From Escherichia coli (GTDB taxonomy: Bacteria > Pseudomonadota > Gammaproteobacteria > Enterobacterales > Enterobacteriaceae): 64,000 nt of DNA. This document shows positions 7,587 through 60,286 of the stretch, piece by piece. The DNA is taken from the NCBI RefSeq assembly GCF_013122565.1, contig NZ_CP053258.1; one strand, written 5' to 3'. A program made the position numbers and the translations under genes. How positions within the stretch are numbered: the stretch's first letter is position 1; every line of letters begins with the position of its first letter. The notes under the pieces were generated by a model, which searched no databases, was not told the DNA's origin, and worked only from the letters and a program-made list of their open reading frames with translations.

Positions 7587-7616
7587 TCAGGCACAAGAAA
7601 TTGTGCCTGATTTTTT
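7587..7616 (+). terminator. Rho-independent terminator downstream of prc
   Basis: Stem tcaggcacaa / ttgtgcctga with gaaa loop followed by a T6 run, 7 nt after the prc stop. Confidence 0.7.
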
Positions 7617-7771
7617 AACAGCGGCAAGATGCCGTAAATCAGATGCTACAAAATGTAAAGTTGTGTCTTTATGGTGACTTACGCGCTATCCAGACTTGAA
7701 AATAGTCGCGTAACCCATACGATGTGGGTATCGCATATTGCGTTTTGTTAAACTGAGGTAAAAAGAAAATT

Positions 7772-8653
7772 ATGATGCGAATCGCGCTCTTCCTGCTAAC
7801 GAACCTGGCCGTAATGGTCGTTTTCGGGCTGGTACTGAGCCTGACAGGGATACAGTCGAGCAGCGTTCAGGGGCTGATGATCATGGCCTTGCTGTTCGGT
7901 TTCGGTGGTTCCTTCGTTTCGCTTCTGATGTCCAAATGGATGGCATTACGATCTGTTGGCGGGGAAGTGATCGAGCAACCGCGTAACGAAAGGGAACGTT
8001 GGCTGGTCAATACTGTAGCAACCCAGGCTCGTCAGGCGGGGATCGCTATGCCGCAAGTGGCTATCTACCATGCGCCGGACATCAACGCTTTTGCAACCGG
8101 TGCGCGCCGTGATGCCTCTCTGGTTGCTGTCAGCACCGGTTTGCTGCAGAACATGAGCCCGGATGAAGCCGAGGCGGTAATTGCTCACGAAATCAGCCAC
8201 ATCGCCAATGGTGATATGGTCACCATGACGCTGATTCAGGGCGTGGTGAACACCTTCGTTATCTTTATTTCCCGTATTCTGGCGCAGCTTGCCGCGGGTT
8301 TTATGGGCGGAAATCGTGATGAAGGTGAAGAGAGCAACGGCAACCCGCTGATCTACTTTGCGGTTGCAACGGTTCTGGAACTGGTGTTTGGTATTCTGGC
8401 GAGCATTATCACCATGTGGTTCTCGCGTCATCGTGAATTCCATGCTGATGCCGGTTCGGCAAAACTGGTTGGTCGAGAGAAAATGATTGCCGCGCTGCAG
8501 CGCCTGAAAACCAGCTATGAACCGCAAGAAGCAACCAGTATGATGGCTTTCTGTATTAACGGTAAGTCGAAATCGCTCAGTGAGTTGTTCATGACTCACC
8601 CGCCGCTGGATAAACGTATTGAAGCTCTGCGTACGGGTGAATACCTGAAGTAA
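7772..8653 (+). CDS. htpX: Membrane zinc metalloprotease HtpX
   Basis: 293-aa ORF starting [20 protein letters not shown], with HEISH zinc motif. Confidence 0.95.
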
Positions 8654-8672
8654 TATGAAGTAAATACTAAAA

Positions 8673-8701
8673 AGCGCGTCCTGAACGACGCGCTTTTTTT
8701 A
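8673..8701. terminator. Bidirectional terminator hairpin between convergent htpX and yebQ
   Basis: Stem agcgcgtc / gacgcgct flanked by an A-run and a T7 run; overlaps the yebQ stop codon. Confidence 0.6.
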
Positions 8702-10072
8702 TGCCCTGGATCGTGGCTGAGTGATACGTAAACCACTGACACAGGCAGCAATCACTGCCAGAATAGCCGCAGCCATCAGCGAGACGTGCGTACCATTATC
8801 ACCAAAGTGATTTAGCATCAGCGCCACCAGCGCCGCGCCGCTACTCTGACCCAGTAGACGAGCCGTCCCTAACATGCCACTGGCTCCACCGCTACGTTCG
8901 CGAGGAGCGGAGGTAATAATGGTGTGGTTATTGGGTGACTGGAATAAGCCAAATCCAGCACCACATAAGATCATCGGCCAGATAATATTGATATCCGCAG
9001 GTGACGCGGGCAGCAGAACCAGGGAAAAAAGCCCCGCAGCCATGATGAACAATCCTAAAGCACCCAGCAATCCTGCATGTACGCGTTCAATCAAATAGCC
9101 TGCCAGCGGAGCCATCACCATCGTTGCTAACGGCCACGGTGTCAGAAGTAAACCTGTTTCGACTTCACTACGCCCGAGCACGGTTTGCAGGTAAAAGGGC
9201 AGGGAAACCATTGCCAGCATTTGTGCGCAGAAAGAGCAAACAGATGTGCAAATAGAAAGTGAAAACAGCGGGATACGCAGTAAATCCACCGGTAGCAGCG
9301 GTACGGGAAGAGAAAGCTGGCGGCGAATAAAGAAAATACCAACGACAACCATTACCACCAGCTCCGCACCAATCAATGTCAGCGATTGCCCCTGAGCGAA
9401 ACCACTCAACGCAGTGATAAGCAGGCCGAAGGTTAACGCGTTCATCACGGCGCTGGGCAGGTCGAAACGGGGTTTACTGGCGCGAGAACCATTGGGTGGC
9501 AGAAAACGCATTGCCAGAAGCAGGGCGATAATACCCAACGGTACGTTGATTAAAAATAACCATTTCCAGGATGCGATGGAGAGGATTGCTGCAGCAATTG
9601 TCGGCCCGGCAGCAGAAGAGACGGCAACAATAAACGAGTTTATGCCCATCCCTCTACCCAGAAAACGTTGTGGATAGATCAGGCGGATAAGGGCGGTATT
9701 AACGCTCATCAACGCTGCACCGCCGAAACCTTGTATGACACGCGCAAGGGTGAGCATTTGCAGCGAATCAGAAAGGGCGCAGAACAGTGAAGACAACAGA
9801 AAAACGACCAGACCGCATTTATAAATACGTCGATAGCCAAACATATCACCCAGAAACGAAAACGAGAGCAGGGAGATGACAATGGCGATTTGATAGGCGT
9901 TCACTACCCAGATGGAACTGGCTGGCGTGGCATGAAGGTCCGTGGCGATTGTTGGCAAGGCGACGTTGGCGATTGCGCCGTCAAGGACAGCCATCGAAAT
10001 ACCAATCACAATGGTTAATATCGCACCGTATCGCTGGGGCAATGGCAGGCCGTCGGCCTGAACTTTTGGCAT
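8699..10072 (-). CDS. yebQ: MFS transporter YebQ
   Basis: ORF 8699-10183; start trimmed to MPKVQADGLPLPQRYGAIL (457 aa), multi-TM MFS profile. Confidence 0.85.
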   Translation of the reverse strand: MPKVQADGLPLPQRYGAILTIVIGISMAVLDGAIANVALPTIATDLHATPASSIWVVNAYQIAIVISLLSFSFLGDMFGYRRIYKCGLVVFLLSSLFCALSDSLQMLTLARVIQGFGGAALMSVNTALIRLIYPQRFLGRGMGINSFIVAVSSAAGPTIAAAILSIASWKWLFLINVPLGIIALLLAMRFLPPNGSRASKPRFDLPSAVMNALTFGLLITALSGFAQGQSLTLIGAELVVMVVVGIFFIRRQLSLPVPLLPVDLLRIPLFSLSICTSVCSFCAQMLAMVSLPFYLQTVLGRSEVETGLLLTPWPLATMVMAPLAGYLIERVHAGLLGALGLFIMAAGLFSLVLLPASPADINIIWPMILCGAGFGLFQSPNNHTIITSAPRERSGGASGMLGTARLLGQSSGAALVALMLNHFGDNGTHVSLMAAAILAVIAACVSGLRITQPRSRA

Positions 10073-10248
10073 AGGAATTTTATATCTTTGGTGAATAATC
10101 AACAGGGGTATGATTCTAGCACTGATATTCACGGTGGATGTCGCAGAATTGTAACTAACCGGCAAAAGATGGATTGCGACCACCCTGGCGCGAAATTATA
10201 ATAAAAAACAGTTCTGATTTTTATAAAACACTCGCAATGAGGTGATAA

Positions 10249-11040
10249 ATGGCTAACGCAGATCTGGATAAACAGCCTGATTCTGTATCTTCCGTGCTAA
10301 AAGTTTTTGGCATTTTGCAGGCGCTGGGTGAAGAGCGCGAAATAGGGATAACCGAGCTGTCGCAGCGCGTCATGATGTCAAAAAGCACCGTTTATCGCTT
10401 TTTACAGACCATGAAAACCTTAGGTTATGTGGCCCAGGAAGGGGAGTCGGAGAAATATTCCCTGACCCTGAAATTGTTTGAACTGGGCGCTCGCGCGTTG
10501 CAAAACGTCGATTTAATTCGTAGCGCAGATATCCAGATGCGTGAGATCTCCCGCCTGACTAAAGAAACTATCCACCTCGGCGCACTGGATGAAGACAGTA
10601 TTGTTTACATTCACAAAATTGACTCTATGTACAATTTGCGCATGTATTCACGGATTGGGCGTCGTAATCCGCTGTACAGCACCGCGATTGGTAAGGTACT
10701 GCTGGCATGGCGCGATCGCGATGAAGTGAAGCAAATTCTTGAGGGCGTGGAGTATAAACGCAGTACCGAGCGGACTATCACCAGTACAGAAGCGTTATTA
10801 CCCGTTCTGGACCAGGTGCGCGAGCAGGGGTATGGCGAAGATAACGAAGAGCAGGAAGAAGGGCTGCGATGCATTGCGGTACCGGTATTTGATCGCTTTG
10901 GCGTGGTCATTGCCGGTTTGAGCATCTCCTTCCCGACGTTGCGTTTCTCTGAAGAGCGTTTACAGGAATATGTTGCAATGTTGCATACCGCAGCGCGCAA
11001 AATTTCTGCCCAAATGGGTTATCACGACTATCCGTTCTGA
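10249..11040 (+). CDS. kdgR: IclR-family transcriptional repressor KdgR
   Basis: 263-aa ORF starting MANADLDKQPDSVSSVLKVFGILQAL, IclR-type HTH plus effector domain. Confidence 0.95.
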   Translation: MANADLDKQPDSVSSVLKVFGILQALGEEREIGITELSQRVMMSKSTVYRFLQTMKTLGYVAQEGESEKYSLTLKLFELGARALQNVDLIRSADIQMREISRLTKETIHLGALDEDSIVYIHKIDSMYNLRMYSRIGRRNPLYSTAIGKVLLAWRDRDEVKQILEGVEYKRSTERTITSTEALLPVLDQVREQGYGEDNEEQEEGLRCIAVPVFDRFGVVIAGLSISFPTLRFSEERLQEYVAMLHTAARKISAQMGYHDYPF

Positions 11041-11047
11041 TGAGAGT

Positions 11048-11088
11048 AAGAACCTGTCGGAATATCAAACAGACAGGTTCTTTATTTT
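11048..11088 (+). terminator. Rho-independent terminator downstream of kdgR
   Basis: Stem aagaacctgtc / gacaggttctt with 13-nt loop followed by ttattttg. Confidence 0.6.
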
Positions 11089-11183
11089 GCATGAGAAAAA
11101 TAAAGTTGAAGGTGGCGTTAGATTAAACGCGCTTGCTATAAGAATTTTTTACTTGTGAGTGAGAATCTGGTTATTTATTACCC

Positions 11184-11423
11184 TTAACCATTATCGACCA
11201 CGATATTGCTTTTGCGTAACAGCGGGCAATCTGTTATCCCCAAAAAACCACTTTTAGTGTGCAAGTATTGTACCGTGCTGGTGCCTCTGGCAGTCAGATA
11301 GGTACATTGCAAACCTAATCCTGCGGCATTCTCTTTGCTTCCAATCAAAACGCCATATCCGCTGAGTAATAATCCTATCCATACCAGTGCTATCAGCATA
11401 ACTGTGCGAATGATGAATCGCAT
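11184..11423 (-). CDS. yobH: Small membrane protein YobH
   Basis: 79-aa ORF starting MRFIIRTVMLIALVWIGLLLSGYGVLIGS. Confidence 0.8.
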   Translation of the reverse strand: MRFIIRTVMLIALVWIGLLLSGYGVLIGSKENAAGLGLQCTYLTARGTSTVQYLHTKSGFLGITDCPLLRKSNIVVDNG

Positions 11424-11525
11424 TACAACCTCTTCTCTTTTTATGTTCGCTTAATCGTAGCGGCAATATGCGCTGAAGCAAGCGACTCATTCCGAAAAAG
11501 CACGAATATCGACATAGTTAGGCGC

Positions 11526-11550
11526 TGTTTAACTAACGCATGCTAGTTTA
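11526..11550 (+). promoter_or_regulatory. PhoP-box-like direct repeats upstream of mgrB
   Basis: TGTTTA at 11526-11531 and AGTTTA at 11545-11550, about 30 nt upstream of mgrB, which is known to be PhoP-activated. The spacing is not the canonical 5 nt, so the exact site is uncertain. Confidence 0.3.
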
Positions 11551-11581
11551 ATGACATAAGGTAGGTAAAACGGAGATTGGA

Positions 11582-11725
11582 GTGAAAAAGTTTCGATGGG
11601 TCGTTCTGGTTGTCGTGGTGTTGGCTTGCTTGCTGCTTTGGGCGCAGGTATTCAACATGATGTGCGATCAGGATGTACAATTTTTCAGCGGAATTTGTGC
11701 CATTAACCAGTTTATCCCGTGGTGA
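11582..11725 (+). CDS. mgrB: Small membrane protein MgrB (PhoQ feedback inhibitor), 47 aa
   Basis: GTG start preceded by GGAG SD; translates to [47 protein letters not shown]. Below the ORF-track size cutoff. Confidence 0.85.
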
Positions 11726-11799
11726 TATCATTTTTTCAGCACTAGATTTTCTTCCTCTCCAGCAATGGTAGAATAGCGCCTCTACTCAGAGGTGGTGAA

Positions 11800-12087
11800 A
11801 TGAACGAAGTTGTAAATTCAGGCGTGATGAGCATTGCGTCTTTGGTTGTATCGGTGGTGGTTCTTCTTATCGGGCTCATCTTGTGGTTTTTTATCAATCG
11901 TGCCAGTTCACGGACTAACGAACAGATTGAACTGCTTGAGGCGTTGCTGGATCAGCAAAAACGTCAAAATGCACTGTTACGTCGTTTGTGCGAAGCAAAC
12001 GAACCTGAGAAAGCAGATAAAAAGGCCGTTGAGAGTCAAAAATCGGTTGAAGACGAAGATATTATTCGTCTGGTCGCCGAACGATAA
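11800..12087 (+). CDS. yebO: Small membrane protein YebO
   Basis: 95-aa ORF starting MNEVVNSGVMSIASLVVSVVVLLIGLILWFF. Confidence 0.85.
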   Translation: MNEVVNSGVMSIASLVVSVVVLLIGLILWFFINRASSRTNEQIELLEALLDQQKRQNALLRRLCEANEPEKADKKAVESQKSVEDEDIIRLVAER

Positions 12088-12754
12088 TCCTTCCTCAATC
12101 TTGAGTAACCCCGTCGTTGCAGGGTTACTCAATTCGTCCTGATTATACGCACTGTCATGGTGCAATTGCTTCAAATTAAAACTCTGGTCTGACTTCAAAT
12201 AATTATCATATTATTTATCTGCGTAACGGGATACCAGAAAAAATATTTACCCTATTAATTTATTAGGATGTTTACATCGGATTTTTGATTAAGCGTGGTA
12301 TTATTTATTAGCGAAACGTTTCTCTCTTGATTTTTTTACTCATTCATCAATTTTTCTTATTTTAAATTTACAATACCTTTGGGATTGACTTCTCTTTGGG
12401 GTAATTGATAGCCGTTAACTGCCTGTTTTATGAGAAAAAGTAATATAACTTTTTATTCATTGCATAGCAGAAAATGTGATATTGCACGCACTATGTAATA
12501 ACTTCTCCCACTGGCCTGGAACAACTGAACTTATTGAACTATGTTAGAAAATACGCCAGTTTAAGTATCTGTCTGAACTGGCAAGGTTAAGCACAATGAT
12601 ATATCGGCGCGTATTCCGTTGCATAAGTGTGCAAAAAAAGTGGAAGACGTATCGAGATTTGTGCGTCTGATCGAGACATGTTTAAAAATGGCTTGCCATA
12701 ATTAACGTTGTATGTGATAACAGATTTCGGGTTAAACGAGGTACAGTTCTGTTT

Positions 12755-12898
12755 ATGTGTGGCATTTTCAGTAAAGAAGTCCTGAGTAAACACGTTGACG
12801 TTGAATACCGCTTCTCTGCCGAGCCTTATATTGGTGCCTCATGCAGTAATGTGTCAGTTTTATCTATGTTATGCCTGCGGGCGAAGAAAACAATCTAA
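12755..12898 (+). CDS. yobF: Small protein YobF, 47 aa, co-transcribed with cspC
   Basis: ATG at 12755 translates to [47 protein letters not shown]; stop 12 nt before the cspC start. Below the ORF-track size cutoff. Confidence 0.85.
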
Positions 12899-12910
12899 GG
12901 AATTTTTCAA

Positions 12911-13120
12911 ATGGCAAAGATTAAAGGTCAGGTTAAGTGGTTCAACGAGTCTAAAGGTTTTGGCTTCATTACTCCGGCTGATGGCAGCAAAGACGTGTTC
13001 GTACACTTCTCTGCTATCCAGGGTAATGGCTTCAAAACTCTGGCTGAAGGTCAGAACGTTGAGTTCGAAATTCAGGACGGCCAGAAAGGTCCGGCAGCTG
13101 TTAACGTAACAGCTATCTGA
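12911..13120 (+). CDS. cspC: Cold-shock-family protein CspC
   Basis: 69-aa [40 protein letters not shown] with RNP1/RNP2 cold-shock motifs. Confidence 0.95.
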
Positions 13121-13166
13121 TCGAATCCACTGATCTGAAGTGTGAATACGCTTCAATCTCGCTATA

Positions 13167-13193
13167 AAGCCTCGTCGAATGCGAGGCTTTTTA
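13167..13193 (+). terminator. Rho-independent terminator downstream of cspC
   Basis: Stem gcctcg / cgaggc with 7-nt loop followed by a T5 run. Confidence 0.65.
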
Positions 13194-13285
13194 CTTTGCT
13201 TTATCTTCGCTCCAGTCGTTCGGATATTTGCCCGCCGCGTGATTCGCGTTACACTTGCGGCCTTTAGTATCCTGCCGGAGTTGTC

Positions 13286-30600: not shown

Positions 30601-32286
30601 TTGAAGAAGGTTTGGCTTAACCGTTATCCCGCGGACGTTCCGACGGAGATCAACCCTGACCGTTATCAATCTCTGGTAGATATGTTTGAGCAGTCGGTCG
30701 CGCGCTACGCCGATCAGCCTGCGTTTGTGAATATGGGGGAGGTGATGACCTTCCGCAAGCTGGAAGAACGCAGTCGCGCGTTTGCCGCTTATTTGCAACA
30801 AGGGTTGGGGCTGAAGAAAGGCGATCGCGTTGCGTTGATGATGCCTAACTTATTGCAATATCCGGTGGCGCTGTTTGGCATTTTGCGTGCCGGGATGATC
30901 GTCGTAAACGTTAACCCGTTATATACCCCGCGAGAGCTTGAGCATCAGCTTAACGATAGCGGCGCATCGGCGATTGTTATCGTGTCTAACTTTGCTCACA
31001 CACTGGAAAAAGTGGTTGATAAAACCGCCGTTCAGCACGTAATTCTGACCCGTATGGGCGATCAGCTATCTACGGCAAAAGGCACGGTAGTCAATTTCGT
31101 TGTTAAATACATCAAGCGTCTGGTGCCGAAATACCATCTGCCAGATGCCATTTCATTTCGTAGCGCCCTGCATAACGGCTACCGGATGCAGTACGTCAAA
31201 CCCGAACTGGTGCCGGAAGATTTAGCCTTCCTGCAATACACCGGCGGCACCACAGGTGTGGCTAAAGGCGCGATGCTGACTCACCGCAATATGCTGGCGA
31301 ACCTGGAACAGGTCAACGCCACCTATGGGCCGTTGCTGCATCCAGGTAAAGAACTGGTAGTAACGGCGCTGCCGCTGTATCACATTTTTGCCCTGACCAT
31401 TAACTGCCTGCTGTTTATCGAACTGGGTGGGCAGAACCTGCTTATCACTAACCCGCGTGATATTCCAGGGTTGGTAAAAGAGTTAGCGAAATATCCGTTT
31501 ACCGCTATCACTGGCGTTAACACCTTGTTCAATGCGTTGCTGAACAATAAAGAGTTCCAGCAGCTGGATTTCTCCAGTCTGCATCTTTCCGCAGGCGGAG
31601 GGATGCCTGTTCAGCAAGTGGTGGCAGAACGTTGGGTGAAACTGACCGGACAGTATCTGCTGGAAGGCTATGGCCTGACCGAGTGTGCGCCGCTGGTCAG
31701 CGTTAACCCGTATGATATTGATTATCATAGTGGCAGCATCGGTTTGCCGGTGCCGTCGACGGAAGCCAAACTGGTGGATGATGATGATAATGAAGTACCA
31801 CCGGGTCAACCGGGTGAGCTTTGTGTCAAAGGACCGCAGGTGATGCTGGGTTACTGGCAGCGTCCGGATGCTACAGATGAGATCATCAAAAATGGCTGGT
31901 TACACACCGGCGACATCGCGGTAATGGATGAAGAAGGATTCCTGCGCATTGTCGATCGTAAAAAAGATATGATTCTGGTTTCCGGTTTTAACGTCTATCC
32001 TAACGAGATTGAAGATGTCGTCATGCAGCATCCTGGCGTACAAGAAGTCGCGGCTGTTGGCGTACCTTCCGGCTCCAGTGGTGAAGCGGTAAAAATCTTT
32101 GTAGTGAAAAAAGATCCATCGCTTACCGAAGAGTCACTGGTGACTTTTTGCCGCCGTCAGCTCACGGGCTACAAAGTACCGAAGCTGGTGGAGTTTCGTG
32201 ATGAGTTACCGAAATCTAACGTCGGAAAAATTTTGCGACGAGAATTACGTGACGAAGCGCGCGGCAAAGTGGACAATAAAGCCTGA
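30601..32286 (+). CDS. fadD: Long-chain-fatty-acid-CoA ligase FadD
   Basis: ORF 30535-32286; start trimmed to TTG at 30601 ([23 protein letters not shown]), 561 aa, AMP-binding motifs. Confidence 0.9.
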
Positions 32287-32305
32287 GCGTTAAGTCAGTC
32301 GTCAG

Positions 32306-32331
32306 ACGCCGGTTAATCCGGCGTTTTTTTT
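32306..32331 (+). terminator. Rho-independent terminator downstream of fadD
   Basis: Stem acgccgg / ccggcgt with ttaat loop followed by a T8 run. Confidence 0.7.
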
Positions 32332-54426: not shown

Positions 54427-54755
54427 CTATTTGTTAGTGAATAAAAGGTTGCCTGTAAAATTACAAAAACCTTACGCAGCGTCAAGCGGAATCGTGTCAA
54501 TCATTGCGACAAATCAATCCTGTGCCTAAGCATTACGCGACTGACTCGCCTCACTCTTCCTTTGGGCTTGAGACCACATGGGGTCGGCGCCCCGAATTTT
54601 AAAGGGCAATTACGATAAAAATGTGATTTTCATCACGATTTAGGTGCAGCCATTTCGTCGAGATCAAGTTTAGGACAAAATTTTACCAGTTGGTGTTAAT
54701 GTTTTGTTAGAATCAGTCACGTAATGTGAGCACGATTAAAGTGAGATGTGAGCAA

Positions 54756-55169
54756 ATGGCTAATAAACCTTCGGCAGAAGAACTGAAAAAAAATTTGTCC
54801 GAGATGCAGTTTTACGTGACGCAGAATCATGGGACAGAGCCGCCATTTACGGGTCGTTTACTGCATAACAAGCGTGACGGCGTATATCACTGTTTGATCT
54901 GCGATGCCCCGCTGTTTCATTCCCAAACCAAGTATGATTCCGGCTGTGGCTGGCCCAGTTTCTACGAACCGGTGAGTGAAGAATCCATTCGTTATATCAA
55001 AGACTTGTCACATGGAATGCAGCGCATAGAAATTCGTTGCGGTAACTGTGATGCCCATCTGGGGCATGTCTTTCCCGACGGGCCGCAGCCAACGGGCGAA
55101 CGTTATTGTGTTAACTCTGCCTCTTTACGCTTTACCGATGGCGAAAACGGCGAAGAAATCAACGGTTGA
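54756..55169 (+). CDS. msrB: Peptide methionine-(R)-sulfoxide reductase MsrB
   Basis: ORF 54726-55169; start trimmed to [31 protein letters not shown] (137 aa); CxxC zinc motifs. Confidence 0.9.
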
Positions 55170-55210
55170 AAAAACGATTCAGCAACTTATTCCACAGGAG
55201 CGGAAAAATT

Positions 55211-55483
55211 ATGAATCTTGATGACATTATCAACAGCATGACGCCTGAGGTATACCAGCGTTTGTCGACCGCCGTTGAACTGGGGAAATGGCCTGATGGC
55301 GTTGCGTTGACCGAGGAACAAAAAGAGAACTGCCTGCAACTGGTGATGCTGTGGCAAGCCCGCCATAATACCGAAGCACAGCATATGACAATTGACACAA
55401 ATGGTCAGATGGTCATGAAGAGCAAACAGCAGTTAAAAGAAGATTTTGGTATCTCAGCAAAGCCTATTGCCATGTTTAAGTGA
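55211..55483 (+). CDS. yeaC: DUF1315 protein YeaC
   Basis: ORF 55166-55483; start trimmed to MNLDDIINSMTPEVYQRLSTAVELGKWPDG (90 aa). Confidence 0.8.
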   Translation: MNLDDIINSMTPEVYQRLSTAVELGKWPDGVALTEEQKENCLQLVMLWQARHNTEAQHMTIDTNGQMVMKSKQQLKEDFGISAKPIAMFK

Positions 55484-55589
55484 ATGAGTTATCTAGTATT
55501 TAAGCCTGTTATTAAGGGAGGGCAAATATACTTGTTCGGACGTCGTGTTTTAGCTGCAAGTAGGTTAAATGCAACACTGACAAGTATTA

Positions 55590-55626
55590 TCTGGCCTACA
55601 ATGTCATTGAGGAAATGTAGGCCAGA
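55590..55626. repeat. Hairpin in the pncA-yeaC spacer
   Basis: Stem tctggcctaca / tgtaggccaga with 15-nt loop, nested within a wider inverted repeat atacttgt ... acaagtat; no U-tract. Confidence 0.5.
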
Positions 55627-55643
55627 GATGAATTCAACTAAAA

Positions 55644-56285
55644 TTACCCCTGCGTCTCTTCCCAGTCTGCCAGCGTATATAGCGTTGCCCCAGCTGCTGA
55701 CATTTCCATAAACGCGTGCGCACTGTCCTGTGGCTGGATATTCACCCCACGACAGCCATCGATAATCACGTTTACCTTATAACCTAACTGTAACGCGTCC
55801 AGCACGGTAAACTTCACGCAATAGTCAGTCGCCAGGCCCATAACGATCAATTCATCGATTTCATGATCGCGTAACCAGTCATCAAGCGAGGTTTTCTGCC
55901 GACGGCCGTTATCAAAAAAGGCACTGTAACTGTCAACTAAAGGATTTTCGCCTTTATGGAACACCGCTGCGATCGCTTTTTGGTTCAGTAACGGATGTAA
56001 TTGTGCGCCTTCACTGTTCTGCACACAGTGATCTGGCCAGAAGGTTTGTGGCAAACCGTCGAGTTGGCCTGGCGTATAAGGCTCTACACCGTGCTGACTG
56101 GCAAAACTGCCGTGATTCGCCGGGTGCCAGTCCTGACTGGCGATAACCGCTTCACCGCGCGACTGGCACCAGTCAATCAGGCGGTTAGCGACATCCACCG
56201 TACTGTCACCTTCCGGCACGGCGAGCGCGCCACCAGCACAGAAATCATTTTGTAAATCGACCAGTAACAGGGCGCGAGGGGGCAT
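55644..56285 (-). CDS. pncA: Nicotinamidase/pyrazinamidase PncA
   Basis: ORF 55644-56303; start trimmed to MPPRALLLVDLQNDFCAGGAL (213 aa). Confidence 0.9.
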   Translation of the reverse strand: MPPRALLLVDLQNDFCAGGALAVPEGDSTVDVANRLIDWCQSRGEAVIASQDWHPANHGSFASQHGVEPYTPGQLDGLPQTFWPDHCVQNSEGAQLHPLLNQKAIAAVFHKGENPLVDSYSAFFDNGRRQKTSLDDWLRDHEIDELIVMGLATDYCVKFTVLDALQLGYKVNVIIDGCRGVNIQPQDSAHAFMEMSAAGATLYTLADWEETQG

Positions 56286-56295
56286 TGCAGTCTCC

Positions 56296-57312
56296 TTAAT
56301 CATCCGGCGTCAGTTCGCCGCGCAGGTTTTGGCTCATGGCCTTGCGAATGGTTTCAGTATCCAGTTCCTGGCTAAGCAGGTAATGCAGTTTGGTTAGCGT
56401 GGCTTCTACAGTCATATCTGCACCGCCAATTACGCCGGCATGGGCGAGGGCGTTACCGGTGGCATAACCACCCATGTTCACTTTACCGGACATACATTGT
56501 GTCAGGTTGACCACCACAATACCGCGATCGCTGGCTTCTTGTAATTCCTGCAGGAAGGCTTTGTTTTGTGGCGCATTACCCACGCCATAGGAGCGCAGAA
56601 TCAATGCTTTCACCGGTTGGCGCAGAAAATTGCGCACGACGTCAGCAGAAATCCCCGGATAAATCGTCACTACGCCAATTGGTTGCGGGGTGATTGGATG
56701 AACGATCAATTCCCCATCACCGTGCGGGGCGGGTGGCGTATTCAAACGACGAATATGGATACCTGCTTCCAGTAACGGAGGAAGGTTTGGAGAGGCAAAC
56801 GCATCAAAACCATCGGCATGGGCTTTGGTAGTGCGGTTGCCGCGATACAGTCGGTTATTAAAAAAGAGTGTTACTTCGTTGATCGGATAATTCGCCGCAA
56901 CGTACAACGCATTCAGCAGATTAATTTGTCCGTCAGAGCGTAGCTCAGCCAGCGGGATTTGTGACCCTGTCACAATGACCGGTTTACCGAGATTCTCGAG
57001 CATGAACGACAGCGCAGAGGCGGTATACGCCATCGTGTCGGTACCGTGTAGAATGACAAAACCATCATAGTCGTCATAGTGCGCTTTAATATCTTCAGCA
57101 ATATGCTGCCAGTCTTCCGGCGTCATATCTGAAGAATCCATCAGTGGCGTATATTCATGAATGGTGAAATCTGGCATCTCCGGGCGATGGAATTCCGGCA
57201 TCAGCGCCAGTTGGCGTTGTAGATGACCTGACACCGGTATATAACCCTGCTCGGAACGCTGCATCCCGATGGTCCCGCCCGTGTAGGCAACGTAAATTGA
57301 TTTCTTTTGCAT
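56296..57312 (-). CDS. ansA: Cytoplasmic L-asparaginase 1
   Basis: 338-aa ORF starting MQKKSIYVAYTGGTIGMQRSEQGY; 10 nt upstream of pncA. Confidence 0.95.
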   Translation of the reverse strand: MQKKSIYVAYTGGTIGMQRSEQGYIPVSGHLQRQLALMPEFHRPEMPDFTIHEYTPLMDSSDMTPEDWQHIAEDIKAHYDDYDGFVILHGTDTMAYTASALSFMLENLGKPVIVTGSQIPLAELRSDGQINLLNALYVAANYPINEVTLFFNNRLYRGNRTTKAHADGFDAFASPNLPPLLEAGIHIRRLNTPPAPHGDGELIVHPITPQPIGVVTIYPGISADVVRNFLRQPVKALILRSYGVGNAPQNKAFLQELQEASDRGIVVVNLTQCMSGKVNMGGYATGNALAHAGVIGGADMTVEATLTKLHYLLSQELDTETIRKAMSQNLRGELTPDD

Positions 57313-57443
57313 GATATTGATATGAATGATATCGAAAGAGCAAAAGTATATACGTGAGGGGCAGCGAGCGCACCTGGATACTCTGTGGATATGAGAAAAG
57401 TCCGGCAGGACGGAGGGATTAGTGTCCCGCCGGAGAAAAGTGG

Positions 57444-58166
57444 TTAATCCTGCAACGCATAGGTTACGGTCGTGACTACGCGTACCGTTTTATTAATCGC
57501 CGTAGGATCATCTTCATCACTGCCACTGGCAAAGATCTGGAATACGCCTTGTGAGGCATCGCTAATTGACCCCACCTGGCTACCTGAGTCCGTTGCAAAT
57601 TGTAGTGCGGCGTTGCGTGCATCTTTGGTGGCGGCAGCAATCATCTCAGCGCGCAGTGCGCCAATACCATTAAAGCGATAGGCGACTTTGCTCTCAGCGA
57701 TAGCGCCATCTGTAGCGACTTGCAGTTCGTTTAATTTCGCGACGACTTTTTCGACAGCAGCAACATTATGGGTTTTTATCGTCACTGACCCGTCTGCGTT
57801 ATAGCGTGGCATTGTGGGATCATCTTTCAGATAGAAGGAATCTGTTCGCTTGCTTGTCCATTGGCCCAGGATTATCTCTTTCTCGTTAATCCCCTGAGCA
57901 TTGAGTTCGGCAACAATTTTTTTCTGCGCGTCTTCCAGTTTCGGGAACAGTTCGCCGGGAACATTACCTTTAAAGTTAAGCGCAATTATTAATTCTGCCG
58001 TATCTGCGCGAACTTCTTTTTCAGAAAGCCCGCGCACATTGACATAACGGTTGTTGGTTTTTAAATGTTTAACACCATCGCCAACAAAATAACCACAGGC
58101 GCTAATCCCCAGTCCGAGGACGATAGCGGCAATTAAAGAGGGGGCCTTGTTCACTGATGACTCCAT
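57444..58166 (-). CDS. SIMPL-domain (DUF541) putative lipoprotein
   Basis: ORF 57444-58256; most plausible start is MESSVNKAPSLIAAIVLGLGISAC (signal-like hydrophobic stretch plus lipobox-like ISAC), giving 241 aa. SIMPL-like blocks: VRADTAELIIALNFKG, AQKKIVAELNAQGINEKEI, AATKDARNAALQFATDSGSQVGSI. Start codon lacks an obvious SD. Confidence 0.6.
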   Translation of the reverse strand: MESSVNKAPSLIAAIVLGLGISACGYFVGDGVKHLKTNNRYVNVRGLSEKEVRADTAELIIALNFKGNVPGELFPKLEDAQKKIVAELNAQGINEKEIILGQWTSKRTDSFYLKDDPTMPRYNADGSVTIKTHNVAAVEKVVAKLNELQVATDGAIAESKVAYRFNGIGALRAEMIAAATKDARNAALQFATDSGSQVGSISDASQGVFQIFASGSDEDDPTAINKTVRVVTTVTYALQD

Positions 58167-58269
58167 ATCAGATGCTAAATGAGCAAGGGAATGTAGTGGA
58201 GAGAGGGAGTGAAAGACAGTCCGATTCAGGAGTGTGGCCGACAGCATATCGGCCACATTTTTGCAGGAT

Positions 58270-60126
58270 TTAACGCACGTTGGCGCAGGTCAGGCAAAAC
58301 GCATAACGGTTTTGTGGGTCGTTAAACGCCGCCAGCTTGTCGCTTTCACTTTTAACGGTAGAGGCTACCGAGGCCAGCGGTGCAGGTAACATGGCCTGGA
58401 ACGCATCTGGCAACATTGCCCGGACAGAACCAGACATGTTGTCCATCACTTTGTCGAAGAAGGTCGGTTCATCAACGTAGTATTCCAGATGCCACTGTTT
58501 CACTTTTGCCAGCTCTGCTGCTTTGGCGACCGCATCATCGAAATCCCCGAGACTATCGACCAGCCCGTTAGCTTTTGCGTCCTGACCGGTCCAGACGTGG
58601 CCCTGGGCGATTTTATCAATCTGCTCCGGCGTCGAATGACGCGCATCAGCAACCAGCGTGATAAAGCGTTTATAGCCATTCTCAATGCTTAACTGCATCA
58701 TCTGCTGCGCTTCCGGCGGCAGTGCCCTGGTGATAGAAACATCCGCCAGCGGTGAAGTTGAGACACCATCAGTATGAACACCAATCGAATCCAGACTATT
58801 TTCTACGGTGGTGATCACGCCGAAGATACCGATAGAACCGGTCAGGGTGCTGGGGTTAGCCACAATGTAATTAGCTGGCGTGGAAATCCAGTAACCACCA
58901 GATGCCGCCATGCCGCCCATCGATACAACCACAGGCTTACCCGCAGCCCGGGCTGCTGCCAGTTCAGCGCGAATCACTTCAGACGCGGTAACGCTGCCGC
59001 CTGGGCTATTAACACGCAGAACAATCGCTTTCACTTTCGGGTCAAGGCGAGCGTCGCGGATTTGTGCCGCAGTGGTATCACCGCCAACATTCCCCTGAGT
59101 TTCCTCGCCATCCATAATTGCGCCATTAGCGAAGACGACACCGATGCTGTCACCGGTATCTGCTGGCGTTTTCAATGCGTAATCGTAATAACTGATGGCG
59201 CGATAATTTTTATCAGTCTTACTCCAGCCGAACTCTTTGGTCAGAGCTTTTTCGATTTCGGCACTCGATGCCAGTGCATCGACCAGCTTGTTTTCCAGCG
59301 CATATTTCGCGGTATCGCCACCGGTTTTGGTTAAACCTTCAAGCAACCCTTGCGCGCCAGGAAATACCTGCTGAGCAGGGATCTGCCGGTTAGCGGCAAC
59401 AGTATTCAGATAGTTTTGCCACAGCTCACCAATCCAGCGGCTGTCAGCTTCGCGGGCTGCCGGTGACATATCATCACGAATAAACGGTTCAACGGCAGAT
59501 TTATACGTACCCACGCGGAACACATGGGTGGAAACTTTCAGCTTATCCAGCAACGATTTGTAGTACAGACCGTTGGTGGCAAAGCCGTGTAGATCAACCA
59601 CGCCTTGCGGAGACAGCCAAATTTTATTGGCGAAACTGGCGAGATAATATTGCCCCTGGCTGTAGTTCTCGCCAACGGCATAAACCGGTTTCCCGCTGTC
59701 ACGAAACTCTTTCAGGGCTTTGCCGATGTACTGCATAGACGGCTGGTCGCCGCCTGCGAAGTTTTTCAGATCCATCACGATACCGGTGATATTGCGGTCG
59801 TCCTTCGCCTGGCGAATGGTGTTGACGATATCAAACAGTGAGTTTTCCTGCAGACGATCGGAACTGGCACCAAGTAGTTGGCGGCTTAATTTACTAAACC
59901 GCTGAGAACTGTCGGGTTTATCGACGATTACACCAGAAATGTCCAGCAGCAGTGCACCACGACTGGCCGTTTCTTTCGAATCACCACCACTGACCTGCAT
60001 CCAGATCCCCACACCAACCAGCACGAGAAAAATAAAGAACAGGTTAAGTACCATTTCACGGACGAAATTCAGCAGACGCCACGTCCATTTAAAAAATCCG
60101 GCAATAAATCGCCAAAGGGTTCGCAT
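58270..60126 (-). CDS. sppA: Signal peptide peptidase A (protease IV)
   Basis: ORF 58270-60270; start trimmed to [27 protein letters not shown] (618 aa); tandem S49 peptidase domains. Confidence 0.95.
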
Positions 60127-60286
60127 GTATTCTCCCAACTTAAGGTCACACCTGTCACAGGCGCAATAGATGTGGTTATCGTAATGACCCAACCGACACT
60201 TGTCAGCAGGAATTGCGGACTGTGCTGTAACAAAATCCACTCTCGTGTTAATTTTGTGAATAAATATCATGACAGGAGTTAATCAA

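Follow-up and report, generated by a model that had tools for sequence, protein, structure and literature searches.

The sppA-ansA spacer

The neighbouring genes sppA and ansA are separated by a short spacer in E. coli K-12, and a much longer spacer in another E. coli genome raises the question of whether a gene was gained there or lost from K-12. We addressed this question in a 64,000-nucleotide stretch of E. coli DNA, referred to here as the window. A preliminary description of it had noticed an additional open reading frame between sppA and ansA, and had suggested that it may be an ancestral gene lost in K-12.

Both flanking genes lie on the minus strand. The upstream flank is sppA (signal peptide peptidase, 618 aa; 58270..60126, with its stop at 58270), which is on the same strand as the additional gene, and the downstream flank is ansA (asparaginase; 56296..57312). 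The spacer between them spans 57313-58269 and measures 957 bp, as had been described. The short K-12 spacer given in the preliminary description was borne out as well: in a K-12-type genome 166 bp lie between sppA and ansA, and they do not contain the additional ORF. In the window, the spacer holds one long ORF, called mechanically on the minus strand at 57444..58256 (270 aa, with a GTG at 58256 as its first codon), and none of comparable length on the other strand. The part of the spacer next to ansA, the ansA upstream region (57313..57392), is common to both haplotypes. In alignments of this part, alleles with the gene (SIMPL+) and without it (SIMPL-) are 88-90% identical, and the differences are bunched near the junction.

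The gene encodes a SIMPL-domain protein. Its composition is host-like with a slightly low GC: the coding sequence has 48.0% GC and a GC3 of 0.46, compared with 51-53% and 0.53-0.56 in the neighbouring genes and 49.8% GC in the whole window. The host-like GC of the preliminary description thus held broadly, with this small deficit as a qualification.

Taking all the evidence together, we consider it probable that this is an intact chromosomal SIMPL gene, that its product is a membrane-tethered envelope protein, and that the gene is ancestral in Escherichia and was deleted in most E. coli. The gene is already known: it is annotated in hundreds of RefSeq genomes, and its absence from K-12 MG1655 has been published under the name ECs2473 (PMC4940412). 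It is an ordinary variable gene, not a new system. What is gained here is a fixed start codon, a warning that "lipoprotein" is unsafe as a label, and the recognition that K-12 has the derived (deleted) state at this locus. The locus also provides a clean case of an old presence/absence polymorphism within a single intergenic spacer.

The coding sequence and its start codon

PGAP calls identical coordinates for the coding sequence in TB06051, EDL933, and ST131. In the window these are 57444..58154 on the minus strand: 711 nt from a GTG start at 58154 to a TAA stop (57444-57446) that is counted in the length. The 236-aa product opens MNKAPSL..., and its sequence starts MNKAPSLIAAIVLGLGISACGYFVGDG. 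The preliminary description had preferred an ATG (58166-58164) from which the protein would begin MESSVNK, and had remarked that the start codon lacks a Shine-Dalgarno sequence.

The start codon was assessed by aligning the sppA-SIMPL junction in ten lineages. In this alignment E. coli and a single cryptic clade were alone in having the MESSVNK ATG. At the same position E1V33, E. whittamii, E. albertii, and E. fergusonii have AAG, the ATGGAG of E. coli corresponding to AAGGAG in E1V33, E. whittamii, and E. fergusonii and to AAGGAA in E. albertii. The GTG at 58154 is kept in all Escherichia, and two more distant contigs have ATG at the same aligned position. Because the start position is conserved across the ten-lineage alignment, the true start is GTG 58154, as PGAP calls it, and not the MESSVNK ATG. 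A Shine-Dalgarno GGAG (58161..58164, minus strand) lies 6 nt upstream of this GTG and overlaps the MESSVNK ATG; its apparent lack had come from judging the wrong start. As for the SIMPL-like ORF of 241-270 aa that had been described in the gap, both the ORF and the SIMPL domain stand, and the length is now 236 aa.

Placement in the SIMPL family

A Pfam scan matched the protein to SIMPL/DUF541 (PF04402) with an E-value of 1.4e-16. The match covers the whole model (1-205 of 205) and residues 42-236 of the 240-aa form, which confirms the SIMPL/DUF541-like blocks that had been noticed by eye, and PF04402 is present in all listed full-length homologues. The E. coli protein YggE has this Pfam family in common with the protein between sppA and ansA and belongs to another subfamily. 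Since the NCBIfam YggE equivalog NF008299 gives 16 bits, below its cutoff of 249, the protein is not YggE.

Sequence comparison with the PDB yielded matches over the full length, to 10am (E 5e-27) and to 7c50/7c51 (E 2e-25). An AlphaFold model built with 31 homologues had a mean pLDDT of 84.8 and showed a long N-terminal helix (residues 8-33, 240-aa numbering) and, after it, a two-lobed alpha/beta domain, as in solved SIMPL members. The best Foldseek match of the model was again 7c50 (E 2e-17; TM 0.80, normalised to the target), and the next was BP26 (4hvz, E 2e-12).

The gene is in the SIMPL subfamily of the Campylobacter jejuni Simpl-like protein (7c50/7c51; 10am contains the same or a near-identical chain). 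The two proteins are ~32% identical and share their length and a C-terminal "KT[IV]RVV[ST]T" strand. The 10am entry is named "Periplasmic protein" and has nine chains of 231 aa, and the match to it includes the N-terminal hydrophobic segment. Unlike the E. coli protein, which has a cysteine at residue 20, the C. jejuni protein has Phe at the corresponding position and is without a lipobox. An equation of the C. jejuni protein with Cj0420 was considered and rejected: the Cj0420 papers deal with another protein.

Other SIMPL proteins are more remote. BP26 (Omp28) of Brucella is a soluble periplasmic protein whose signal peptide is cleaved. It is an envelope protein with the SIMPL/DUF541 fold, like the E. 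coli protein, but the two are 18% identical, with a TM of about 0.45-0.49 (4hvz). Jileicin, from the Gram-positive Paenibacillus jilinensis, is a SIMPL-domain protein by its authors' BLAST (PMC9104118) and can be likened to the E. coli protein by description only. It is secreted, and is reported to damage target membranes by permeabilising them (PMC9104118), whereas the E. coli protein is predicted to be membrane-tethered; nothing suggests that the latter is a toxin.

Ancestry of the gene

The order and orientation of sppA, the SIMPL gene, and ansA are the same in E. albertii, E. fergusonii, and E. whittamii. The arrangement also occurs in Escherichia sp. MOD1-EC7003, in Escherichia sp. E1V33, and in two enterobacterial metagenome contigs, whose SppA proteins are 90% and 76-80% identical to that of E. 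coli. In each lineage, dS of the SIMPL gene was of the same order as dS of sppA and ansA. Because the synteny is the same and dS tracks that of the flanks across lineages, the gene already lay here when the Escherichia species began to diverge; the K-12 state is therefore derived. The suggestion of an ancestral gene lost in K-12 agrees with these observations, namely synteny in seven other lineages and dS that tracks the flanks, together with a dN/dS of 0.04-0.12. A gene that lay between sppA and ansA before Escherichia diverged, and that was removed from K-12 by deletion, is supported.

Beyond this group, the closest proteins come from metagenomes (MAGs of Phycisphaerales, Rickettsiales, and other Alphaproteobacteria) and have 46-59% identity. 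The next are from Thalassospira, Sphingobium, and Azospirillum, at 30-36% identity. A scan of one genome per species found no carrier in Salmonella, Citrobacter, or any other named enterobacterium. An ancient transfer into the ancestor of the enterobacterial group, as opposed to a recent import, is plausible.

The preliminary description had seen no mobile-element signatures around the gene, and our searches agreed. The flanking repeats were only short and at chance level. PHROGs and PADLOC gave no match for the SIMPL product, there was no close plasmid copy (the best plasmid relative was 37% identical), and Rfam had nothing in the region. None of the features that mark a genomic island or mobile insertion (repeats, an integrase or transposase, a tRNA target, phage or plasmid relatives) was found.

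Distribution in E. coli and the deletion allele

The whole SIMPL+ spacer is present in 943 of the 5426 complete E. coli genomes, with one chromosomal copy in each, and the RefSeq annotation in these carriers is "SIMPL domain-containing protein". The short K-12-type spacer is found as one contiguous piece in 4481. Together the SIMPL+ and deletion haplotypes account for all but two of the genomes (5424/5426), and the gene is absent from 83% of them. The carriers comprise two allele groups: an ST131-type allele in 586 genomes, mostly 100% identical among themselves, and an O157:H7/O145-type allele in 357 genomes, 98.2% identical to the ST131-type allele, the clone labels being taken from strain names among the sampled rows and not from sequence typing. 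A few other strains, such as TB06051, are included in the two counts.

The carrier frequency of 17% probably reflects the heavy sequencing of pathogenic clones. Typical carriers of this cjSLP-like SIMPL subfamily are ST131 and O157:H7/O145, pathogenic clones on which much work has been done. Because laboratory K-12 is without the gene and studied pathogens carry it, the gene is both easy to overlook and easy to knock out.

Most E. coli, including K-12 and CFT073, have one old deletion allele of ~790 bp in which the 5' leader and the whole coding sequence are gone. In coordinates of the window the segment missing from the K-12-type haplotype is 57444..58233. Its approximate ends, taken from alignments, are GGCCAC/A after the sppA hairpin and TAACCAC/TTTTC at the SIMPL stop (the slash marks the end), with CCAC common to both. 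This suggests that the deletion ran from just after the sppA hairpin to the SIMPL stop, in a region where the alignment is loose. As a result of such a deletion, the sppA hairpin would be followed by the T-rich 3' UTR that belongs to the SIMPL gene.

K-12, APEC37, and CFT073 have the same junction and the same filler, APEC37 with an extra 13-bp loss. The filler of K-12 (~50 bp) aligns, loosely, only to the 3' terminator region of the SIMPL gene. Residual SIMPL homology within it was considered and rejected, since local alignment was no better than with shuffled sequence: scores against the interior of the SIMPL segment were 9-12, and those of shuffles had a mean of 11.0 and an sd of 1.8.

Both haplotypes have phylogroup-level internal divergence, and both are present within phylogroup B2. 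Between CFT073 and K-12 the deletion spacers show 5 differences in 166 nt; between ST131 and O157 the SIMPL+ spacers are 1.8% divergent. ST131 (SIMPL+) and CFT073 (SIMPL-), which are both B2, differ at 6 of 1857 nt in sppA and at 8 of 1017 nt in ansA. Either the presence/absence polymorphism is old, or short recombination tracts moved the alleles. It is also conceivable, though we think it improbable, that the polymorphism is unusually old and under niche-dependent (balancing) selection, and that the anchored SIMPL protein would act with SppA in envelope quality control.

Constraint on the gene and alternative histories

Comparison of eight Escherichia lineages (the window, TB06051, EDL933, MOD1-EC7003, E1V33, E. 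whittamii, E. albertii, and E. fergusonii) showed that the gene is real and under purifying selection. The coding sequence is intact in all eight, at 711 nt and with its start and stop unchanged. Pairwise dN/dS against the window was 0.04-0.12 between species; within E. coli it was 0.18-0.21, from tiny counts. In E. albertii the SIMPL protein has 87% amino acid identity, as against 97-99% for the products of sppA and ansA, and in E. fergusonii the corresponding values are 70% and 87-94%. The SIMPL gene evolves faster than its neighbours and is still clearly constrained.

A reader who started from the E. coli genomes could picture the gene as recently acquired, by horizontal transfer into a small number of pathogenic clones and in the manner of a small O-island; the K-12 state would then be the ancestral one. 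The absence from 83% of complete genomes, the concentration of carriers in the ST131-type and O157:H7/O145-type allele groups, the slightly low GC3 (0.46), and the fact that the nearest relatives beyond Escherichia-like bacteria are Planctomycetota and Alphaproteobacteria MAGs, at 46-59% identity, all fit that picture. We nevertheless regard it as very improbable. The gene keeps its position and orientation in seven other lineages, its divergence scales with that of the flanks, and repeats, integrase, tRNA, and phage or plasmid relatives are all lacking. Moreover, the 1.8% by which the ST131 allele departs from that of O157 is divergence at the level of phylogroups.

We give hardly any credence, either, to a decaying or non-functional ORF that survives in some lineages. 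A reading frame that is intact in eight Escherichia lineages with a dN/dS of 0.04-0.12, a conserved Shine-Dalgarno sequence, start, and terminator, and the peptide and transcript evidence attributed to Z2800/ECs2473 all argue against decay. They do so in spite of the loss of the gene without obvious harm in most E. coli, an IS1 inside the gene in one ST131 genome (H156), and the existence of truncated variants (P0004, P0005). An ancestral gene, under constraint and deleted in most E. coli, is the history that we retain.

The N-terminal segment: anchor or lipoprotein

The protein is predicted to consist of a short N-terminus (MNK), a hydrophobic helix of ~22 residues, and the two-lobed SIMPL domain. 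The N-terminal hydrophobic segment (58080..58145, minus strand; residues 4-25, APSLIAAIVLGLGISACGYFVG) has a hydropathy peak of 2.1 and contains a lipobox-like ISAC, with the codon for Cys20 at 58095-58097. Both the segment and the ISAC had been pointed out in the preliminary description, and the segment passes a lipobox regex in the style of PROSITE PS51257. This rule asks for Lys or Arg in the n-region, an uncharged h-region, and the motif [LIVMFWSTAG](2)-[LIVMFYSTAGCQ]-[AGS]-C with the Cys at 15-35. The flank after the helix has more positive charges than the N-terminus.

Among the relatives, the lipobox rule is passed, with Cys20, by E. coli (LGISAC), E. albertii, and the homologue on contig L007, and it is failed by E. 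fergusonii (ITVC, with Val at -1). Of 109 full-length homologues, no more than 5 satisfy it. The Cys is confined to Escherichia and L007, and the few distant homologues that have an aligned Cys fail the rule. The glycines that follow are far more widespread. The hydrophobic stretch ends in G-[YFWL]-x-x-G in 102 of the 109 full-length homologues, and G21 and G25 (G-x-x-x-G; G25 and G29 in 240-aa numbering) are family-invariant, with no exception in the 31-sequence alignment.

On balance, and with modest confidence, we favour an uncleaved signal-anchor as the role of the helix. Such an anchor would keep the SIMPL domain attached to the inner membrane, on its periplasmic side. It fits better than a discarded signal peptide because the conserved GxxxG helix is modelled as continuous with the residues that follow. 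The charge balance and a reported phosphotyrosine leave the periplasmic topology in some doubt.

In Escherichia, the lineage-specific Cys might allow lipidation instead. The protein would then be an outer-membrane lipoprotein: LspA would cleave before Cys20, the Cys would be lipidated, and, with Gly at +2, Lol would deliver the protein to the outer membrane. Two points speak for this: the PROSITE-PS51257-style rule accepts LGISAC, the n-region having a Lys, and the Cys has persisted through a dS above 1 in E. coli, the cryptic clades, E. albertii, E. fergusonii, and L007. We consider it unlikely, if by no means negligible. The ITVC of E. fergusonii fails the rule through its Val at -1, in the syntenic relatives P0009 and P0010/L010 the Cys is replaced by Gly or Ala, and a lipobox occurs in only the five full-length homologues counted above. 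In addition, the residues after the Cys (G-Y-F-V-G) are near-invariant across the family and are modelled within one continuous helix. The uncleaved signal-anchor remains our preferred reading.

Published traces and possible function

Two published studies seem to have detected the product or the transcript of the SIMPL gene, by identifications that are indirect. One of them, on the tyrosine phosphoproteome of EDL933, has the entry "Z2800, hypothetical protein, Y68" (PMC3681748). An ORF that begins at the ATG at 58247 has 267 aa and a Tyr at exactly residue 68, and the equation of Z2800 of EDL933 with the gene between sppA and ansA fits. Phosphorylation of a tyrosine would be more readily understood if the domain faced the cytoplasm. 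The other trace comes from a microarray study of Sakai, in which ECs2473 was absent from MG1655, had its best non-coli match in E. albertii at 81% nucleotide identity, and was induced 11.65-fold by lettuce cell-wall polysaccharide (PMC4940412). The coding sequences of EDL933 and E. albertii have 80.0% nucleotide identity, and ECs2473 of Sakai likewise fits the SIMPL gene.

In the literature we found no experiment on the protein encoded between sppA and ansA, and no defined biochemical mechanism for any SIMPL protein. Because distant homologues, in four contigs, share no conserved neighbours, gene context gives no clue to function. By analogy with other SIMPL proteins, the product is probably a non-enzymatic, possibly oligomeric envelope protein. 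It would help under particular envelope or oxidative stresses and be dispensable in most niches. Expression of YggE protects against oxidative stress generated by tellurite (Acuna et al. 2009, as cited in PMC12489995), a phenotype that is not transferable with confidence to the present protein. BP26 binds the extracellular matrix components collagen and vitronectin, in vitro only (PMC7697752).

Hairpins and transcription

An 11-bp stem-loop lies after the SIMPL stop (57401..57434, minus strand) and is followed by CUUUUCUC at 57393-57400. In RNA folding it reached -21.2 kcal/mol with a z of -6.8, and 0 of 200 shuffles folded as well. The stem-loop, whose stem E. coli and the cryptic clades conserve, is likely to be the terminator of the SIMPL gene. 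A simple terminator scan missed it because its loop is 12 nt.

A conserved hairpin also stands 13 nt after the sppA stop (58234..58256, minus strand). It folds at -19.7 kcal/mol (z -4.95) on the minus strand and at -27.4 kcal/mol on the plus strand, and a T-run, TTTTT, sits beside it on the plus strand at 58258-58262. The preliminary description had placed a hairpin with a T-run in the upstream part of the ORF. The stem at 58234-58256 and the T-run on the plus strand are indeed there, but they lie outside the real gene, upstream of its start. In SIMPL+ E. coli the sense strand continues after the stem with ACUCCUGAA, without a U-tract; an intrinsic terminator, defined as a GC-rich stem with a sense U-tract, was thus not found between sppA and the SIMPL gene. 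A sense-strand T-rich run does follow the post-sppA hairpin in the K-12 type, E. fergusonii, L007, and L010. The stem is the same in the K-12 type and E. fergusonii, and different in L007 and L010.

A promoter scan found no sigma-70-like promoter between 57250 and 58400. With the U-tract gone from the sppA hairpin and no such promoter ahead of the gene, read-through from sppA is possible, and the SIMPL gene may be transcribed in this way in E. coli. A sigma-E promoter based on TCTGA at 58168-58172 was tried and rejected: its -35 fit was poor (3/7), and its start site would remove the Shine-Dalgarno sequence. We also rejected an inversion of the sppA hairpin relative to K-12, which the swapped sides of the A-run and the T-run had brought to mind; the loop matches were uninformative (3/7 vs 2/7). 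Loss of the T-run is a simpler explanation than inversion of the hairpin because E. fergusonii has both runs.

Lineage of the locus

The E. coli lineage of the window is poorly represented among complete genomes. No close match to the locus at 55100-60126 was present among complete E. coli genomes, and the highest identity found in that set was 98.8% over the pncA-yeaC stretch and 99.4% over the spacer between sppA and ansA. The latter was to TB06051, a fresh-water strain from the Galapagos that carries the SIMPL gene, the PF04402 coding sequence located in this spacer. When sppA of the window is compared with that of representative A, B2, and E strains (phylogroups), 21-31 nt differ.

We also observed that the window unites the SIMPL+ state, meaning the haplotype with the SIMPL gene, with the absence of ydjE-L. 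This eight-gene cluster, ydjE-ydjL, sits between pncA and yeaC in K-12, CFT073, ST131, and TB06051. It is missing from the window, where pncA (55644-56303) directly adjoins yeaC (55166-55483) and msrB (54726-55169), the junction lying within 55166-56303. The same contiguous arrangement of pncA and yeaC without ydjE-ydjL occurs in 1089 of the 5426 complete E. coli genomes, and the two genes are likewise contiguous in E. fergusonii.

Disruption of the SIMPL gene

In the genome of hit H156 (NZ_OX030701.1 448809-450542), which holds the ST131-type allele, the version of the SIMPL gene present in 586 genomes, an IS1B-family element cuts the gene into two annotated pieces. This disruption was found in one genome, and the inactivation by the element is recent and independent.

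Features flanking the SIMPL gene

The A- and T-runs beside the hairpin that follows the sppA stop codon differ among lineages. At 58234-58262 in the window, the T-run is antisense (+ strand), and on the sense strand the hairpin is preceded by an A-run. The K-12-type allele, with its short spacer and deleted SIMPL gene, has a T-run on the sense strand only, and the E. fergusonii hairpin has both an A-run and a T-run, resembling a bidirectional terminator. About 9 nt of the T-run after the stem are missing in SIMPL+ Escherichia lineages except E. fergusonii.

The mechanical sppA reading frame (58270-60270; 666 aa, ATG at 60270) runs into the start region of the divergent ydjA; the annotated protein has 618 aa and starts at 60126.

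Across the whole window, no Rfam match exceeded the gathering score beyond a cspA-type thermoregulator 5' UTR (12735-13195, + strand, 139.6 bits) and the sRNA sroD (32245-32330, + strand, 115.2 bits), ordinary E. coli features with no relation to the SIMPL finding. Near the sppA-ansA locus of CFT073, at 7615-12125 of the CFT073 sequence L035, genes for a J-domain protein and an Hsp70-family protein, together with a hypothetical gene, lie between gdhA and topB.
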